Source of the DNA: Candidatus Thorarchaeota archaeon
Lineage (GTDB): Archaea > Asgardarchaeota > Heimdallarchaeia > Hodarchaeales > Hodarchaeaceae
Reading direction: 5' to 3'
Assembly: GCA_048882505.1 (NCBI GenBank)
Contig: JBHLRO010000002.1
Span: 90,001 to 122,000 of the forward strand
DNA length: 32,000 nt
Below are positions 23,346 through 30,700 of the stretch, piece after piece. The notes beneath the pieces are model-generated. The model made no database searches and was not told where the DNA came from. It was given only the letters and a program-made list of their open reading frames with translations. Both the position numbers and the translations under genes were made by a program. How positions within the stretch are numbered: position 1 is the first letter of the stretch; each line of letters opens with the position of its first letter.

Positions 23346-23609
23346 ATGATTTGCTTGCAAAAAACAGAAGAAAAAATAGACTTGCGATTAGATGTAAGAA
23401 ATTTAATGTGTCCCCGGCCAGTACTAAGGGCCTATAAGACACTAAAAAAAATGGAACCTGGGAATGTATTGGAAATCATTGCAACTGCCAGATTAACCCA
23501 GTATAACATTCCATATATGGTTCGCATGTCGGGTAATGAATTATTGGCTCAGGAAAAAACTGACGCGAAAGAATTCCGATTTTTGGTTAAAAAAGTGAAC
23601 CCCAATTAG
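23346..23609 (+). CDS. tusA: TusA/SirA-family sulfur carrier
   Basis: LDVRNLMCPRPVL (CPxP motif) and GNVLEIIAT; 87 aa. Confidence 0.85.
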   Translation: MICLQKTEEKIDLRLDVRNLMCPRPVLRAYKTLKKMEPGNVLEIIATARLTQYNIPYMVRMSGNELLAQEKTDAKEFRFLVKKVNPN

Positions 23610-23636
23610 TGTAAAGACCCGTTTTAAAAATCCGTT

Positions 23637-24032
23637 TTACAGGTTTTCAGGTCGAATCGGCATTTGTTCTAACCATTTTAGCACGGTTTTCCCGAATTTC
23701 GTCCGATAATAGTACACATTCCCCGCACTATATTTGTCCTTAATGAGGAGGAATCGAGCCAAGTATGCAAGGTGATAAGATACTGCCGAATTACTAATCC
23801 CCAATTTATTCACTAATTCACAGACGCAATTTGGTTTCATATGCAGATACCATAATATCTTTAGGCGGATTGGATGGGAAAGGGCCTTCAACATGATCTC
23901 CTGATCTGCGGTCGTCTCTCCGTATTGGGTGACAATATGGTCGCGCTGTCGTTGCAAACGCGCTAGCCATTCGTTCCTGCGTTCGGGATCAATAGGACAA
24001 CAAAAATCCTCATGTTCCGTTTCTGCATCCAT
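23637..24032 (-). CDS. ArsR/SmtB-family transcriptional regulator
   Basis: LKALSHPIRLKIL, NCVCEL (alpha3 metal site) and SAVSYHL, with an extra N-terminal CCP. Confidence 0.88.
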   Translation of the reverse strand: MDAETEHEDFCCPIDPERRNEWLARLQRQRDHIVTQYGETTADQEIMLKALSHPIRLKILWYLHMKPNCVCELVNKLGISNSAVSYHLAYLARFLLIKDKYSAGNVYYYRTKFGKTVLKWLEQMPIRPENL

Positions 24033-24056
24033 TAGATTACTCTCCTTGTAATAGAT

Positions 24057-25013
24057 TCAATTACAACCCTCAGTAAATTCCGCAGAACTACAATTACAAT
24101 CAAAAAGATCGCATTCTACGTCATCCACATTCTCAAGGATTGTAGTAGGCGTTGAGGGGAATGCTGTGGACAACAAACTTTGCATGGTTTGTAAGCCATA
24201 ACGTTCACTGGCGTAGTGGTTAATATCAATTAAAGTGATACCTAGCTCACGGGCAATCGTTTCCACAACCCAGTTATGATCTGAGGAGACTAATATTCCA
24301 ACCCCGTATTCAGCCATCTCCATGATCATCTGATCAGTAAACCCCCCTCCTGGGATATAACCTATTGTGGGATTTCTACATTGAGGATTCACAATTACAG
24401 ATGGCTCCACATTTAAAGCATGGAGTTTGGTTACAAGTTCACCAATATCGTATTCCTTTTTCACAATTGCCCCCAAGTTTCGGATCCTATGTTCTTTGTA
24501 CGTTAGATCAACCTTTGTGAAATCTGCTCTTGTGAGGCCCACATGGTATAAAAACGAGTCCCCAATCCCACTTTCCATGACATCCCAAGCCAAATGGAAA
24601 TTGAAGATATTGAACTGATTATCTTCAGCTTGTTTTAACATCCCTCGGTAGATAGGGTTGTCATAACAACTGATCTTATGGTGACTGATCACCAGGCTGT
24701 TGGAGGGAACCTCCGCAAGATTGCGTGGATCCGGGTTAATCATCAAATAAATGGCATTTATTTCATCAATAGATTTGATTTCATACCCGAGAGACATTTT
24801 TGATCCTTCCCTGGAGATGTGGGTATACTCAAAATCATAGATGGGGGACCTGCTTTCCAAAAAATTGACCACATTATCGCTTAGCAGAGTTTTGCCAGGG
24901 ATAATCGGGACGTATCTTTTTATGCTCATTCTGACGGGAGAGGTAATTTGTCGAAAGGGAATTGCAGGTTCAATGTTGAGTTTCTCTAATGAATCTGCTG
25001 TCATTTGAAGCAC
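24057..25013 (-). CDS. Nif3/DUF34-family dinuclear metal protein with Cys-rich tail
   Basis: ISHH, FHLAWD, PGGG and HYASE metal-ligand motifs; tail CDLFDCNCSSAEFTEGCN. The start may be ATG 25004. Confidence 0.8.
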   Translation of the reverse strand: MLQMTADSLEKLNIEPAIPFRQITSPVRMSIKRYVPIIPGKTLLSDNVVNFLESRSPIYDFEYTHISREGSKMSLGYEIKSIDEINAIYLMINPDPRNLAEVPSNSLVISHHKISCYDNPIYRGMLKQAEDNQFNIFNFHLAWDVMESGIGDSFLYHVGLTRADFTKVDLTYKEHRIRNLGAIVKKEYDIGELVTKLHALNVEPSVIVNPQCRNPTIGYIPGGGFTDQMIMEMAEYGVGILVSSDHNWVVETIARELGITLIDINHYASERYGLQTMQSLLSTAFPSTPTTILENVDDVECDLFDCNCSSAEFTEGCN

Positions 25014-25072
25014 ACCGGGCTGGGCTTATAATCGAGTATTAATCGTTTTCGGTTCCTTAGGAGTGTTTTTTT

Positions 25073-25384
25073 CTAACAACACGTTTTGGCTGGATCTGAG
25101 TCATCAGGATCCTGGGAGGGTTGCGATGGACAGAGACTTTGCCCCGTCAAAATTGTGTCTAAAGCACCAAGGTTATGTTCATCTGCCTTCCGACGCACAA
25201 TATTGGCGTAACGGGCAATCTTCAGGATTTCATCATTCGTTAGACCGATTGCAAGACCCTGCTGCTGATGATAATCGAGGCAGGGAATGCAGCCCGCAGC
25301 CACGCTGGCGGCAATGAATGCAATTTCTCGCTCTCTTGTTCGTTGTGAATTGTCCTCTATGTCTTTGTTTTGCGTGAGTTCCAT
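25073..25384 (-). CDS. Carboxymuconolactone decarboxylase/AhpD-like protein with CxxC and a terminal CC
   Basis: REIAFIAASVAAGCIPCLDYH...GLTNDEI is the CMD/AhpD core; the protein ends KTCC. Confidence 0.8.
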   Translation of the reverse strand: MELTQNKDIEDNSQRTREREIAFIAASVAAGCIPCLDYHQQQGLAIGLTNDEILKIARYANIVRRKADEHNLGALDTILTGQSLCPSQPSQDPDDSDPAKTCC

Positions 25385-25798: not shown

Positions 25799-28036
25799 AT
25801 GCTAGTTAAGTCTCTGGCTATTGATGAAGATGCCAAAAAGTTCATCATCGAGCAGGATGGAATAAAGGAATTATATCCTCCTCAGAGTAAAGCTATAGGT
25901 CAGGGTCTGTTAGATAACCAGAACCTTGTGATTGCCATACCTACTGCCTCGGGAAAGACCCTGCTGGCAGAACTAGCGGCCCTCAAACATGTTCTAGAAA
26001 AAACGGGCAAAGTACTATATTTATGCCCACTGCGTGCATTGGCGGCCGAGAAATTCCATGCTATGAAACGTTTTGAAAACCTTGGATTACGGGTTGGCAT
26101 TACCTCTGGGGACTATGATTCTAAAGATCGGTACCTTCCCCGTTATGACATTATTGTCTCTACGAACGAGAAAATTGACGCACTCCTGCGACACGGAACA
26201 TCCTGGATTTTAAACCAGGTTAGTTTAGTGATTATTGACGAATTTCATCTCCTGGATGATCAACACCGTGGCCCCACTCTTGAAACTCTTTTGGCTCGCT
26301 TAAGATACGAAAACTCACAGGCCCAGCTATTGGCACTAAGCGCTACCGTAGGAAATGCCGATGAATTAGCGGAATGGCTTGATGCTAAGCTCGTCATAAG
26401 TGATTGGAGACCAGTTCCACTCAAGGAAGGTGTTTATTATGATAACTATATTACATATGCCGATTTTTCTACTCGCGAAGTGCCTTTTCGGAGAAAAGAT
26501 CAACTAATCAACATTGCTCTCGATTCAGTTCATAACGACGACCAGGTTCTTGTTTTCGCATCTTCGCGTCGTTCAGCCGAGTCAGCAGCCGAACGGATTG
26601 GCAAATTGATAGTTCCTTTGGTGACACCTCGGGATCTGAAACACTTGAGCGAAGTTGCGGGGGAGGCGGCGATAAATCTGACGGATCCGCTCTCAACCAA
26701 GCTAAGTGAAACGCTCAAGCGGGGTGTAACTTTTCATCATGCTGGGCTCAATTCCCAGCAGCGTGAACTGGTGGAGCAGGCTTTCAAGAAAGGGTATATC
26801 AAGATCCTCTGTTCCACTCCTACGCTGGCCTCCGGAATAAATCTACCGGCCAAGCGGGTGGTGATCGCCAGTGTGTATCGATATTCTGTCGAAGAAGGAT
26901 CTCATCCTATCAAGACCCTAGAGTATAAACAGATGTGCGGAAGAGCTGGCCGACCACAGTTTGACACAGAGGGGGAATCTCTTCTCCTAGCTAAAAAGGA
27001 GGGGACAGCTGGATGGTTATTGGATCGATATATTCGAAGTGGCCCCGAAACAATCTATTCCAAACTTGCAGCCAAACCTGCACTGCGGCGTAATATCCTA
27101 GGATTAATTGCATCAAAAGTCGTCGATAACCTCCCAGAATTAGGTGAATTCTTCGAAAAAACCTTCTATGGATTCCAGTTCGAAGTTAGTCTTCTTGTAG
27201 ATAAAATCAGGGATGTGGTTGACAATCTAATTGTTTGGGAGATGATAGAACCATTGGATGCAAATCAATCCTTGAGGGCTACCGTATTTGGCCGAAGAAT
27301 CAGTCAACTGTACCTGGATCCCGATACGGCAGCCACAATCGCAGCTGGCCTCGCCCTGACTACTAAGAAGGCCGCCCACCGCCTTCATGTCATCGCTCTT
27401 TTAGATCTCATCGTAGGTACCCCTGATATGCTTGAACTTTCATTTCGGAAGCAGGACTGGAAAAAAACTGAGGATCGTTTGTTAAAGCTTGAATCCAAGC
27501 TTGTTCTGGAAGTCCCCAATTCTTTAGATATCGACTATGAAATTCGACTTCGGGATTTCAAAACTGTTCTCTTCCTCTGGGATTGGATTCGAGAAGTTTC
27601 GATCGAGCGGCTTTTGCTCCGATATGGGATTGGATCGGGTGATGTGAGACGGATAATCGACACAGCTACCTGGCTTATAACAGCTATGAGTGAGATTGCC
27701 AAGTTAAAGGTTCATCAAGACAAAAACTACGCTCATCTTGCCAAACGTGCCAATGAACTCAGTGAACGTGTAACATATGGGATCAAACGGGATGCCGTCA
27801 GTCTGACCCGTATCCGCGGGATTGGCCGTAAGCGTGCTCGTGTTCTACTTGAACATGGGATTAAAGATGTAATCAAACTCGGATCTATGAATGTTACCGA
27901 GCTAACTAGAATTCCTGGGTTTGGAAAGGAACTAGCTAAGAGTGTTTTGGACGCTGCAAAGTCGTATGACATTCCAAAGGACGAGGAATCTCGGACTGAA
28001 TTTGTTAATGGCGATATTAGTGATTATTTATCTTAA
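25799..28036 (+). CDS. hel308: Hel308/Hjm (Ski2-like SF2) DNA helicase
   Basis: PTASGKT, IDEFH, LSAT, FHHAGL, TPTLASGINLPA, QMCGRAGRP and a C-terminal HhH (IRGIGRKRA). Confidence 0.95.
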   Translation: MLVKSLAIDEDAKKFIIEQDGIKELYPPQSKAIGQGLLDNQNLVIAIPTASGKTLLAELAALKHVLEKTGKVLYLCPLRALAAEKFHAMKRFENLGLRVGITSGDYDSKDRYLPRYDIIVSTNEKIDALLRHGTSWILNQVSLVIIDEFHLLDDQHRGPTLETLLARLRYENSQAQLLALSATVGNADELAEWLDAKLVISDWRPVPLKEGVYYDNYITYADFSTREVPFRRKDQLINIALDSVHNDDQVLVFASSRRSAESAAERIGKLIVPLVTPRDLKHLSEVAGEAAINLTDPLSTKLSETLKRGVTFHHAGLNSQQRELVEQAFKKGYIKILCSTPTLASGINLPAKRVVIASVYRYSVEEGSHPIKTLEYKQMCGRAGRPQFDTEGESLLLAKKEGTAGWLLDRYIRSGPETIYSKLAAKPALRRNILGLIASKVVDNLPELGEFFEKTFYGFQFEVSLLVDKIRDVVDNLIVWEMIEPLDANQSLRATVFGRRISQLYLDPDTAATIAAGLALTTKKAAHRLHVIALLDLIVGTPDMLELSFRKQDWKKTEDRLLKLESKLVLEVPNSLDIDYEIRLRDFKTVLFLWDWIREVSIERLLLRYGIGSGDVRRIIDTATWLITAMSEIAKLKVHQDKNYAHLAKRANELSERVTYGIKRDAVSLTRIRGIGRKRARVLLEHGIKDVIKLGSMNVTELTRIPGFGKELAKSVLDAAKSYDIPKDEESRTEFVNGDISDYLS
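27968..28036 (+). repeat. hel308 3' end, left copy of a 69-bp diverged direct repeat
   Basis: 58/69 nt identical to 29864-29932, with a 17-bp exact core AGGACGAGGAATCTCGG at 27978-27994. Confidence 0.92.
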
Positions 28037-28230
28037 AATGAAAGTATCATTGAGAATTAGGTAGTTGAGAAGATCTCTAAAGAATTCAGGTGAAGAATAT
28101 GAAGCCAAATTAGGAGGATAACAACTCCAATCTTCAAAAGTCGGATGGGTTATTCTACTAATCAGCGATATTGGGGAGGGATCATCTTTCTCTAATCTCT
28201 CACTAGTCTCGCATTTGTTGATCATTTGGA

Positions 28231-29709
28231 TTAGCTTAAAGAAAATAAGTTTATACTAGTGCTAATTCCGCTTTTAACAAATAATAACGGTAGAGATTCA
28301 TTTTTGGCAACATCAAGCAAAGTATTTAGACCCAAAATCACGATATAGTTGCTAGTACCATTTGTATTTGGTAATGCTGAATTGTTACCATGATAAATCC
28401 AAGTATACTTGTACTCAGCAACGCCCATCAGATATGGAAGTTGTGTTTGGAGAGTAAAAGTGGTAAAAATCGTAGAATTGGAGGGAACGTTGATTTGAAT
28501 AAATTCTGCAGTTGATTCTATTAATTCAGTCATATTTGGATCTGTGTACTCATATCTTTCTCCAACTACTCCAAATATTATCATATTACCAAATATAGTA
28601 CCTATCATCAGAAATAATAGCACTCGTCGATTATTAATAAGAAATAAAAATCCACCAAGAATTATTGAATAATTATAGAAGTACCTTGCTTGAACTGTCC
28701 AAATTACAATGAGAGAAGTATTAATTATTGACCAAGCTAACAAAACCATATGGATTGCTTTTATGGATCCTAAAACCGACTTCGAATCATCCCTTAATTG
28801 CGTGATAAAATAATACGATATACACAAAAAAACAAAGCCAATGAATGCTAAAGCATACCCAGCACTCAAAATAATCTTAATAATATTATTTCCTCCAAAT
28901 GGGTTAACGATAAGGCCTGTACCTGTAATTTGAGAGCTGGATACACTTTGGGCTACCATTGCAACTTGGGGTTCAGTGAATCCCACTATCATTAAGCGGG
29001 GCACATATAGAAGAAGGCCACCCATCACGTAAGACATAATATTTCTCAGTTGTGTCGTAACCAGTAACTTAGAGCTGTGATCTGGCTCAATTCGGACCTG
29101 ATGTGATATACCATACCCTAGAATAAATACTCCGATAGCTAAGGCGCATGAGATTACATCTTCTTTGCATAGATAACCAGCACCAATTGAAATCCCAGTT
29201 AACCATAACCAATACCATTTTTCGGGCGATAATGTCCATTTGTTTAACGTAATTAATGAAATAACAATAAATAATGCAGAAAAGGGCTCGAATAAATTCC
29301 AAGAACCAAGCATCAATGTTATTGGAGCAAATAAGTACATGGTTAACGCCCCCAATCCATAATCGCGACCGTGGAGACTTCTAATAAGAAGAAACCAAGC
29401 TAGTCCCCCAACGATTACAATGGGAATGGTACTTAATCTTAATATGCTAATATCTGTACCGAAGAATAATATAATGATGGCATAATACAGTATTGGAATG
29501 ATTCTACCTGCAAACCACTTGTTTTGATTACTATTGGTGATTAAATACTCCCCTTTATAAACCAGGGTCTTGGCTTGATATAAATATCCACCTTCATCAC
29601 TGATAAAACTCTTATGAAAGAAAAGAATCACATAAGAGATATATACAACGATTACGGCTGATAGGACCAAATACTCAAATCTGAGACGGGAATTCTTTAA
29701 TTGATGCAA
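28231..29709 (-). CDS. GT-C fold membrane glycosyltransferase (PMT_2/ArnT-like)
   Basis: Multiple hydrophobic segments, SDEGGY in the first external loop and LCKED. The region is visibly more AT-rich than the flanking genes. Confidence 0.72.
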   Translation of the reverse strand: MHQLKNSRLRFEYLVLSAVIVVYISYVILFFHKSFISDEGGYLYQAKTLVYKGEYLITNSNQNKWFAGRIIPILYYAIIILFFGTDISILRLSTIPIVIVGGLAWFLLIRSLHGRDYGLGALTMYLFAPITLMLGSWNLFEPFSALFIVISLITLNKWTLSPEKWYWLWLTGISIGAGYLCKEDVISCALAIGVFILGYGISHQVRIEPDHSSKLLVTTQLRNIMSYVMGGLLLYVPRLMIVGFTEPQVAMVAQSVSSSQITGTGLIVNPFGGNNIIKIILSAGYALAFIGFVFLCISYYFITQLRDDSKSVLGSIKAIHMVLLAWSIINTSLIVIWTVQARYFYNYSIILGGFLFLINNRRVLLFLMIGTIFGNMIIFGVVGERYEYTDPNMTELIESTAEFIQINVPSNSTIFTTFTLQTQLPYLMGVAEYKYTWIYHGNNSALPNTNGTSNYIVILGLNTLLDVAKNESLPLLFVKSGISTSINLFSLS

Positions 29710-29863
29710 TTATTATTTCCTCTTAAAGCGGAAGACATACATGGAAGATAGTTGCTATTGATATAATGATAGTTTAAATAATTCTTTTGATCCACCAGAT
29801 TCTATACAAATACACTTCTTTGATATATCTGCTCCACCCATTGAATGAAGGGACTCACTCCCA

Positions 29864-29932
29864 GACCTTCCAGAGGACGAGGAATCTCGGGCTGAGCTTG
29901 TTAATGGCGATGTTAGTGATTATCTTACGTGA
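29864..29932 (+). pseudogene. Orphaned second copy of the hel308 3' end (DLPEDEESRAELVNGDVSDYLT*)
   Basis: Codon-aligned with DIPKDEESRTEFVNGDISDYLS*, including the stop position; lies 60 nt before rpiA. Confidence 0.9.
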
Positions 29933-29943
29933 AGACACTATTT

Positions 29944-29969
29944 GTGATGGGAACCCTTATAACCATCAC
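29944..29969. promoter_or_regulatory. rpiA promoter: TATA box enclosed by a 7-bp inverted repeat
   Basis: GTGATGG-gaaccCTTATAA-CCATCAC, with the TATA-like core about 30 nt upstream of ATG 29993. Confidence 0.5.
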
Positions 29970-29992
29970 TCTCGGCAAAAGGTCACACACTA

Positions 29993-30700
29993 ATGTCAAA
30001 TGAACTCATTGAACAGGGTAAAAGGGCAGCAGCCATCCAGGCGGTCGAAAACCATATTGAGCCCGGGATGGTGATCGGCATAGGCAGTGGTTCGACCGTT
30101 GTTCATGTTGTTAAACAGCTGGCTGCTTTGAACCAAACGAAGGATTTGGCTCTAAAATGTGTTCCAACCTCATATCAAACTGAAGATCTTATTATTGAAC
30201 ATGGTTTACGATTGGCATCCTTGGATGAGTTTCCAACTATTGATATCGCTATCGATGGTGCAGATGAGATTGATCAACATTTGAATGCGATCAAAGGGGG
30301 TGGTGGATGTTTGGTTCGAGAAAAAATTGTCGCAGCAAGCGCAAACAAGTTCATTTTGGTAGTTGATTATCGTAAACACTCGCAGGCTCTTGGGGAGAAG
30401 TGGAAAAAAGGGGTTCCTATCGAAATCATTCCATTTGCACGGAGCCCCCTAATCGAAAGGTTGCGTGGGCTAGGAGGAAAACCAACACTTCGACAGGCAC
30501 AAGTTAAAATGGGCCCACTTGTTACTGACAATGGAAATTTTATCATTGACGTGGATTTTGGGATCATTAACAATCCCAGCGAACTGCATCAATCCTTACT
30601 TGCTCTTCCAGGCGTAGTGGATGTCGGTCTCTTTATTGGGATGGCCTCGGCCGCCTACATTGGCCAACAGGATGGAACGATTCTGGTACTCTGTAAATAA
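29993..30700 (+). CDS. rpiA: Ribose-5-phosphate isomerase A
   Basis: GIGSGST, DGADE, KGGGG, REK and VTDNGNFIID. Confidence 0.96.
   Translation: MSNELIEQGKRAAAIQAVENHIEPGMVIGIGSGSTVVHVVKQLAALNQTKDLALKCVPTSYQTEDLIIEHGLRLASLDEFPTIDIAIDGADEIDQHLNAIKGGGGCLVREKIVAASANKFILVVDYRKHSQALGEKWKKGVPIEIIPFARSPLIERLRGLGGKPTLRQAQVKMGPLVTDNGNFIIDVDFGIINNPSELHQSLLALPGVVDVGLFIGMASAAYIGQQDGTILVLCK

Follow-up and report, generated by a model that had tools for sequence, protein, structure and literature searches.

Gene hel308 of a Hodarchaeales-type Asgard archaeon, located in a 32-kb stretch of genomic DNA (hereafter the window, with position 1 as its first letter), is followed by a second copy of its own 3′ end, and the two copies enclose an island of foreign composition whose cargo is a predicted membrane glycosyltransferase of the GT-C fold. 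The window belongs to a 4.3-Mb metagenome-assembled genome (MAG) that is 94.5% complete and is designated G000 below; the taxon names of its Hel308 homologues point to the Hodarchaeales, within the Heimdall-group Asgard archaea. A foreign cassette, made of the GT-C gene and of a tail copy from a related lineage, was probably inserted into the last 23 codons of hel308 through recombination within the tail. The site is a clean, single-cassette member of a recurrent class of cassettes that displace gene tails and carry no recombinase gene.

The helicase gene itself is intact. It occupies positions 25799–28036 of the forward strand and encodes a Hel308/Hjm-type, Ski2-like helicase of 745 amino acids (741–745 in orthologues of relatives), in which the Pfam domains DEAD, Helicase_C, Helicase_dom4_arc and HHH_5 account for the two-RecA core, the archaeal domain 4 and the C-terminal helix-hairpin-helix that characterize this type. 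A repeat search paired positions 27968–28027 with 29864–29923 (54 of 60 nucleotides [nt] identical, spacing 1896 nt), which is the longest direct repeat within the window. Extended to the stop codons, the repeat comprises the last 22 codons and the stop of hel308, with 58 identities over 69 nt (16% divergence) between the active, attL-like copy (27968–28036, forward strand) and the orphan, attR-like copy (29864–29932, forward strand). Both contain an exact core of 17 nt, AGGACGAGGAATCTCGG, which the repeat alignment places at 27978–27994 and 29874–29890 of the forward strand. BLAST against the whole genome retrieved these two copies only (E = 6.8e-17 for the second).

The similarity between the copies has a sharp onset at 27968/29864 and runs precisely to the stop codons, TAA (28034–28036) in the active copy and TGA (29930–29932) in the orphan. 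The hel308 frame and the position of the stop are kept in both, and the translations read DIPKDEESRTEFVNGDISDYLS and DLPEDEESRAELVNGDVSDYLT, each followed by the stop, the active variant ending in …TEFVNGDISDYLS. Of the 10 coding differences, none falls on a second codon position, and the changes in the orphan are conservative only. The ratio of non-synonymous to synonymous differences per site (pN/pS) is 0.64, a value that is uninformative, given that the acidic tail evolves fast anyway. In the active protein, this tail extends beyond HHH_5, the final folded domain, whose end is at residue 721. The orphan, which is colinear with the empty sites described below, lies outside any gene, its frame being open for only five codons upstream and without a start; that it might be part of a 68-codon open reading frame (ORF) at 29787–29993 was discarded, since this ORF runs in another frame and has no Pfam match. 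An assembly artefact was likewise rejected, because contigs from an independent study bridge both junctions: in run X2, one near-identical contig (record 4, 27889–28894) crosses the left junction at 28036/28037 and another (record 7, 29826–30326) the right junction at 29863/29864. The left junction is also present in a strain of ∼1.5% divergence (run X4, record 21, 27344–28556).

The inserted segment proper (28037–29863, 1827 nt) is absent from the empty sites and has a G+C content (GC) of 0.347, the values along the DNA between the tail copies being 0.30–0.40 as compared with 0.42–0.50 in the flanks. Its contents are the GT-C gene and a doubtful 65-codon ORF (28028–28225, reverse strand) that overlaps the hel308 stop, has neither a Pfam match nor a second genomic copy and is probably not a gene; non-coding DNA totals 348 nt. 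The island holds no recombinase gene. The repeat search found no terminal inverted repeats at its ends, Pfam revealed neither a transposase domain nor an endonuclease ORF in 28037–29863, no RNA family was found in the island, and scans for promoters and terminators gave chance-level results only.

The cargo gene (28231–29709, reverse strand, with a TTG start after GAGG) encodes a protein of 492 amino acids which, on profile and model evidence, is predicted to be a polytopic membrane glycosyltransferase of the GT-C fold, ArnT/PMT_2-like. Its direct Pfam match to PMT_2 (E = 1e-4) stays below the cut-off; a profile built from the protein and a few relatives matches ArnT (5ezm) with E = 4e-31. The AlphaFold (AF2) model (pLDDT 67, pTM 0.75) contains ∼13 helices, and the top 24 Foldseek matches obtained with it are all GT-C enzymes (TM 0.41–0.50), the best being STT3/AglB/PglB, ALG9/12, ArnT and PMT. 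Residue D38, nearly invariant in the alignment of relatives, fits the acidic motif of the first outer loop in GT-C enzymes. With a GC of 0.348 and a third-position value (GC3) of 0.309, the gene falls in the lowest 1–3% of the long ORFs of the genome. This is not merely a membrane-protein effect, because the GC is still low when only ORFs for hydrophobic proteins are compared, and the gene is compositionally foreign. No homologue was found in 40 relatives at E ≤ 1e-5, and searches of 5.8 billion proteins and 1.84 billion representatives brought up a single real homologue (49% identical), whose neighborhood is an ordinary glycan-synthesis cluster (GT4 enzymes along with an epimerase, an acetyltransferase and a methyltransferase).

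Polarity follows from two relatives in which the site is empty. In G016, the closest species representative (a sister species, with a Hel308 88% identical), hel308 carries a single tail copy and is followed by a 66-nt spacer, rpiA and the same 158-amino-acid neighbor, with no GT-C gene; the independent contig L046 of the same species has the same layout. Two contigs of a second, further relative (P0004, from two samples) show hel308, 59 nt and rpiA. Among 12 relatives, no repeat of the hel308 tail was detected in the 4–6.5 kb downstream of hel308. In one sample, a G016-like contig with the empty site co-occurs. In the window, rpiA (29993–30700, forward strand; ribose-5-phosphate isomerase A, Pfam Rib_5-P_isom_A, E = 1.5e-66) begins 60 nt past the orphan stop and is intact. 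The native hel308–rpiA spacer (29933–29992, forward strand) is colinear with that of G016 and includes a TATA-like TTATAA at 29957–29962, a putative rpiA promoter element; the insertion left this spacer untouched. The orphan copy is the displaced original end of hel308, because the orphan and the 60 nt beyond it are colinear with the tail and spacer of the empty sites, and at least the 3′ part of the active copy probably came in with the island.

The states shared with G016 point the same way. The orphan has in common with it the TGA stop, a GTT (Val) and a CTT (Leu) codon. Left of the core, it is the active copy that retains, at a K/E site, the ancestral Lys present in both relatives; right of it, the orphan has the ancestral state at the V/I, Leu-codon and stop sites. 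Altogether, the orphan shares six sites and the active copy four (nine and five in the parallel case of an aldehyde dehydrogenase gene, see below). This pattern suggests one reciprocal exchange near the core, from which it would be expected, but six versus four sites are too few for proof and too few to fix the position of the crossover. The two tail copies are 84–90% alike, while either is ∼65–70% alike to the tail of the sister species; because the copies resemble each other far more than either resembles the G016 tail, the imported tail comes from a lineage closer to G000 than the sister species. No closer hel308 donor was found among the 5.8 billion proteins, where the best non-self C-terminal regions are only 80% and 75% identical, and the donor lineage of the tail therefore lies outside the searched data.

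These results agree in large part with the initial annotation, which had been made from the sequence of the window alone. The recurrence of the hel308 end 1896 bp downstream, with 58 of 69 nt and a 17-bp core, was recovered by both the repeat search and the genome-wide BLAST, and the AT-rich gene on the opposite strand between the copies, called GT-C there, is supported by its composition, the ArnT profile and the structural matches. The proposed ancestral order hel308–rpiA is that of the G016, L046 and P0004 contigs (59–66 nt between the genes), and entry of an island into the hel308 3′ end with supply of a new C-terminus is supported by the colinearity of orphan and spacer with these sites. 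The checks that had been suggested also came out in its favor where relatives lacking the GT-C gene (a single tail copy rather than both), independent bridging of the junctions and composition relative to the host were concerned. Matching the C-terminal variants to the empty site succeeded in part: the orphan is the closer to G016, but the sites are too few to place the crossover.

Tail-displacing insertion is genome-wide and directional in G000. In a census at the protein level, the last 32 residues of 3235 gene-like ORFs were compared with their surroundings, and orphan copies within 40 kb were recorded downstream on the same strand for 14 genes, upstream on the same strand for one and on the opposite strand for none; 5 of the 14 loci were inspected by eye, the others having passed an automated filter only. 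The targets include Hel308, SMC, TFB, two aldehyde dehydrogenases, RibD_C, Pirin, an FMN dehydrogenase, an AhpC-like protein and a helix-turn-helix (HTH) regulator. Repeat architectures elsewhere were sought by a same-strand self-comparison of the whole genome. In an aldehyde dehydrogenase (Aldedh) gene, the last 108 nt are repeated 1904 nt downstream at a site that is empty in G016, and the sole cargo, on the opposite strand and with a GC of 0.345, encodes a multi-HTH LAGLIDADG endonuclease-like protein (C2:361754–363406). Behind smc, at least three extra copies of the last 27 codons (four in the protein census), each with a stop, delimit cassettes for a methyltransferase, membrane proteins and a NosD-like protein. 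The proximal smc cassettes of G016 differ from those of G000, the distal flank being common to both, and no extra smc tail copies were found in 15 other members of the genus that were checked. A RibD_C-type gene shows the same layout with ArsR/ArsP as cargo. In every other case inspected, the similarity of the tails ends exactly at the stop codon. The Aldedh and smc tail copies differ almost only synonymously (pN/pS 0.05–0.11), and the orphan tails therefore diverged while they were parts of working genes. No motif common to the target tails was noticed, and tail copies fold no better than shuffled sequences (z from −1.3 to +0.3). None of the inspected cassettes contains a recombinase, and no nuclease was seen in the smc and RibD_C cassettes. 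Two further census loci lie on the contig of the window, 21–28 kb upstream of its start: the genes for an FMN-dependent dehydrogenase (C2:61654–62814) and for a 484-amino-acid protein (C2:67709–69163), each with an orphan tail 4.8 kb downstream, recorded by the census only.

The generalizations drawn in the initial annotation fared less well. It had attributed the same architecture to mcm, where the repeat is an exact one of 15 nt at the 5′ end of the gene and hence of another kind than that of hel308; it had supposed that genes of DNA metabolism are the targets, which also comprise the two aldehyde dehydrogenases and the RibD_C, Pirin, FMN dehydrogenase, AhpC-like and riboflavin kinase genes; and it had supposed cell-surface functions for the cargo, which also includes the LAGLIDADG nuclease, the methyltransferase, ArsR/ArsP and PCNA-like proteins. 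The three cargo genes of the mcm insert are a PCNA-like gene and two small ORFs. A paralogous set, 65–75% identical, occurs at C11:117274–119478 (L079); a direct repeat of 169 nt with 84% identity brackets this set, and its location is the 5′ part of a gene for a CTP-dependent riboflavin kinase. Another pair from the genome-wide repeat scan (C6:96793–96852 and 98827–98886) was set aside as a repeated intergenic element rather than a copy of a gene tail: the 60-nt copies, 90% identical and 2034 nt apart, contain a short palindrome (AAAGATC…GATCTTT), the downstream copy directly precedes an ATG, and the gene between them resembles that of the NosD-like cassette protein. The element looks like a common upstream region.

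The search for an enzyme that could mobilize such cassettes yielded little. G000 contains one protein with PF00589, a Xer-like recombinase (SAM_1 plus catalytic domain) encoded on a contig other than that of the window, and at its 94.5% completeness no match to the archaeal-phage-type integrase (PF16795) or to serine recombinases (PF00239) was found. The Xer orthologue is the only tyrosine recombinase of G016. No integrase-bearing element was found in G000 or G016, nor one adjoining the hel308 island. LAGLIDADG domains occur at two places in G000 only, the Aldedh cargo and C28:18860–19336; the latter, inside an open frame of 823 amino acids, is probably an intein. An integron cassette is not supported, as the tails do not fold as attC-type hairpins and the sole PF00589 match is Xer-like. 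Nor do the features of a transposon, insertion sequence or casposon apply, since the island ends lack inverted repeats, the direct repeat measures 69 nt with 16% divergence, and no transposase domain is present. As a separate observation, the Xer-like recombinases of G000 (C5:210883–212124; L050:1883–3124) and G016 (L093:794–2050) have an insert of ∼92 amino acids between the core-binding and catalytic domains, which starts with a second copy of an RDxxILYLL motif; the orthologues in G009, G014 and G007 lack this insert. The two genomes with this insert are those in which tail-copy cassettes were seen.

A plausible course of events can be proposed. Foreign DNA carrying one GT-C gene and a hel308-tail copy from a related lineage would have entered the last 23 codons of hel308 once G000 and its sister species had diverged. 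Recombination in the tail, for which the alignment makes the 17-nt core or its vicinity the most likely zone of crossover, would have joined the two molecules, so that hel308 would then end in the imported tail and stop and the original tail would be stranded 1896 nt downstream, before rpiA, with both flanking genes and the rpiA promoter region left intact. The tail copy would thus act as an ‘address’ through which host homologous recombination integrates a circular or one-end-anchored fragment (Campbell-type). The insertion and its polarity, the displacement of the original tail, the foreign composition and the lack of a recombinase gene in the island are established by the data; the circular intermediate, the position of the crossover and the enzyme are the parts of this scheme that we infer. 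Host homologous recombination through the tail copy is the preferred route, to which we give slightly less than an even chance. It is favored because it needs no dedicated enzyme, can make use of 14 unrelated tails in a Xer-only genome and accounts for the resemblance of the tails to genuine gene ends of related lineages. The Xer-only complement of recombinases, together with the lack of a motif common to the target tails, argues against many dedicated integrases.

Several points weigh against this proposal. The argument that the tail stems from a working gene is weak for hel308 itself (pN/pS 0.64) and leans on the sister cases; moreover, the longest exact match, 17 nt, offers little length to homologous recombination. 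Within the arrays at smc and tfb, the repeat keeps a constant left edge; a site-specific cut accounts for this more readily than free homologous recombination does, the latter being compatible with it only if the cassettes at each site descend from one founding event. An att-like pattern (26 nt, two degenerate positions) had no match in metagenome_contigs or genome_contigs, and neither a donor nor an attP was found. In near-identical strains from four runs, compared through their contigs, in which rare variants drop out, no joint skipping 27968–29863, circular form or empty-site polymorphism was seen. Lastly, the MAG is 94.5% complete, and integrase-carrying mobile elements often fail to bin.

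This last caveat bears on the alternative that the island is a decayed integrative element, as the initial annotation supposed in proposing that an integrase had been lost, or was moved by an integrase acting in trans, an account that is possible but on balance doubtful. An integrase-bearing element with an attP mimicking the hel308 tail would have integrated site-specifically, and later deletions would have left only the GT-C gene between attL and attR, which would make the island an archaeal counterpart of the bacterial units described below. The anatomy is indeed att-like: an imperfect left arm of short length leads into the identical core of 17 nt, after which a gene-end mimic runs to the stop, and the constant left edges of the smc and tfb arrays would follow. 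Archaeal elements described in 2019 resemble the hel308 class in entering the 3′-distal part of protein genes at the last codons, bringing a new stop and displacing the original one, and also in their flanking direct repeats, the empty site in related species and the tandem arrays at one site (PMC6563490); the difference is that the hel308 genome shows only Xer. Streptococci provide a second likeness, as cargo-only cis-mobilizable elements (CIMEs) are common there at gene 3′ ends (fda, rpsI, rpmG and rplL), measure 1.2–13 kb and include glycosyltransferases among their cargo, with older units farther from the target gene (PMC7563491). Small size, cargo without recombination or transfer genes, att-like repeats at a gene 3′ end and the order of the units count as common ground. 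In contrast, CIMEs are deletion derivatives of ICEs (integrative and conjugative elements) or IMEs (integrative and mobilizable elements) and move by accretion, whereas no ICE, IME or integrase partner was seen here, and the host is an Asgard archaeon. Phage 21 and e14, inserted in icd of E. coli, likewise carry an alternative 3′ end with scattered base changes and leave the gene functional, but they are prophages with their own integrase, which the hel308 island lacks. Decay of an integrase element is further opposed by the lack of any trace of an integrase in the island's 348 non-coding nt, by the single Xer-like tyrosine recombinase in each of G000 and G016 (G000 being without a serine recombinase), by the lack of a recombinase in any inspected cassette and by the many specificities that 14 unrelated target tails would demand.

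Nuclease-triggered copy-in, in which the hel308 tail of an empty allele would be cut and repair would copy in a ‘replacement tail plus cargo’, stranding the original tail, is unlikely, even though the twin Aldedh site, empty in G016 and with a LAGLIDADG/HTH endonuclease-like gene as its sole cargo, conforms to it and the constancy of the left edges would follow from cutting at a fixed site. The precedent lies in fungal mitochondria, where mobile endonuclease ORFs are accompanied by partial C-terminal duplications of cob and atp6, the working gene receiving a replacement C-terminus and the original being stranded beyond the insert (PMC6279837). The Aldedh::LAGLIDADG site is a close match to these ORFs, while the hel308 island differs in holding a glycosyltransferase, no endonuclease gene and no room for one. 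The atp6 gene of Allomyces is reportedly a further example of C-terminal duplication, attributed to Paquin et al. in 1994. In G000, the only LAGLIDADG domain besides that of the Aldedh cargo is embedded in the 823-amino-acid frame, and no nuclease appeared in the smc or RibD_C cassettes. A purely local event is very improbable: an insertion would have duplicated 69 nt of target, as a long target-site duplication or by replication slippage, and the copies would have diverged in place. It would account for the closer likeness of the copies to each other (84–90%) than to the sister-species tail (∼65–70%), and the hel308 pN/pS of 0.64 would suit a pair in which one copy is constrained and the other decays. 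Such a duplication would, however, have to stop exactly at the stop codon, as in all inspected cases; decay in place is excluded for the parallel cases by their pN/pS of 0.05–0.11; and the orphan keeps its frame and stop with conservative changes only, in the absence of a transposase and of inverted repeats. There is equally little to recommend an ancestral island that relatives lost precisely by recombination between the tail copies. The 69-nt direct repeats would permit such a deletion, as may the branching order of the G000, G016 and P0004 lineages, but two or more independent precise losses would be required. Besides, the GT-C gene has a foreign composition, turned up in none of 40 relatives and is nearly unique in public data, and the smc locus, with proximal cassettes that differ between G000 and G016 and a common distal flank, speaks for gain beside the gene rather than loss.

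Other variation was noted in and around hel308. At loci from several genomes of the same genus (L016, L018, L019, L021, L031 and L032), hel308 frames reach 960–1270 amino acids with the match split at residue ∼344 or ∼380, and Hel308 homologues in databases carry intein/LAGLIDADG Pfam domains, which indicates inteins at two different sites in the relatives; the hel308 of the window has none. Upstream, a block of CMD, Nif3 and ArsR-like genes (23346–25384, reverse strand) is missing from the P0004 contigs, where an enoyl-CoA hydratase gene directly precedes hel308. In L046, of the G016 type, CMD and the gene next to it lie upstream of hel308, as in the window. This block may be another insertion or deletion beside hel308.

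Insertion at a gene 3′ end with delivery of a replacement end is already well known from integrase elements and from mitochondrial endonuclease ORFs. What is unusual here is the tiny, cargo-only unit without an evident mobilizing enzyme, at ∼14 sites in one Asgard genome. A wider proposal, which we consider rather doubtful at present, is that Hodarchaeales-type Asgard archaea exchange accessory genes independently of recombinases, with the last 20–60 codons of a conserved gene serving as the integration address; equally conjectural is its corollary that cassettes enter at the working gene end, push older ones downstream and pass between lineages. If true, this would be a homology-addressed functional analogue of integrons, with hel308::GT-C as its simplest, single-cassette case. 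The hel308 site is a useful and clean test case, since it holds a single cassette, two relatives have an exact empty site and the junctions are confirmed in an independent sample, and its GT-C cargo conforms to the widespread pattern of cell-surface glycan genes ranking among those most often exchanged. A route of this type, possibly driven purely by homology, may account for a large share of the accessory genome in the group of archaea nearest to eukaryotes.

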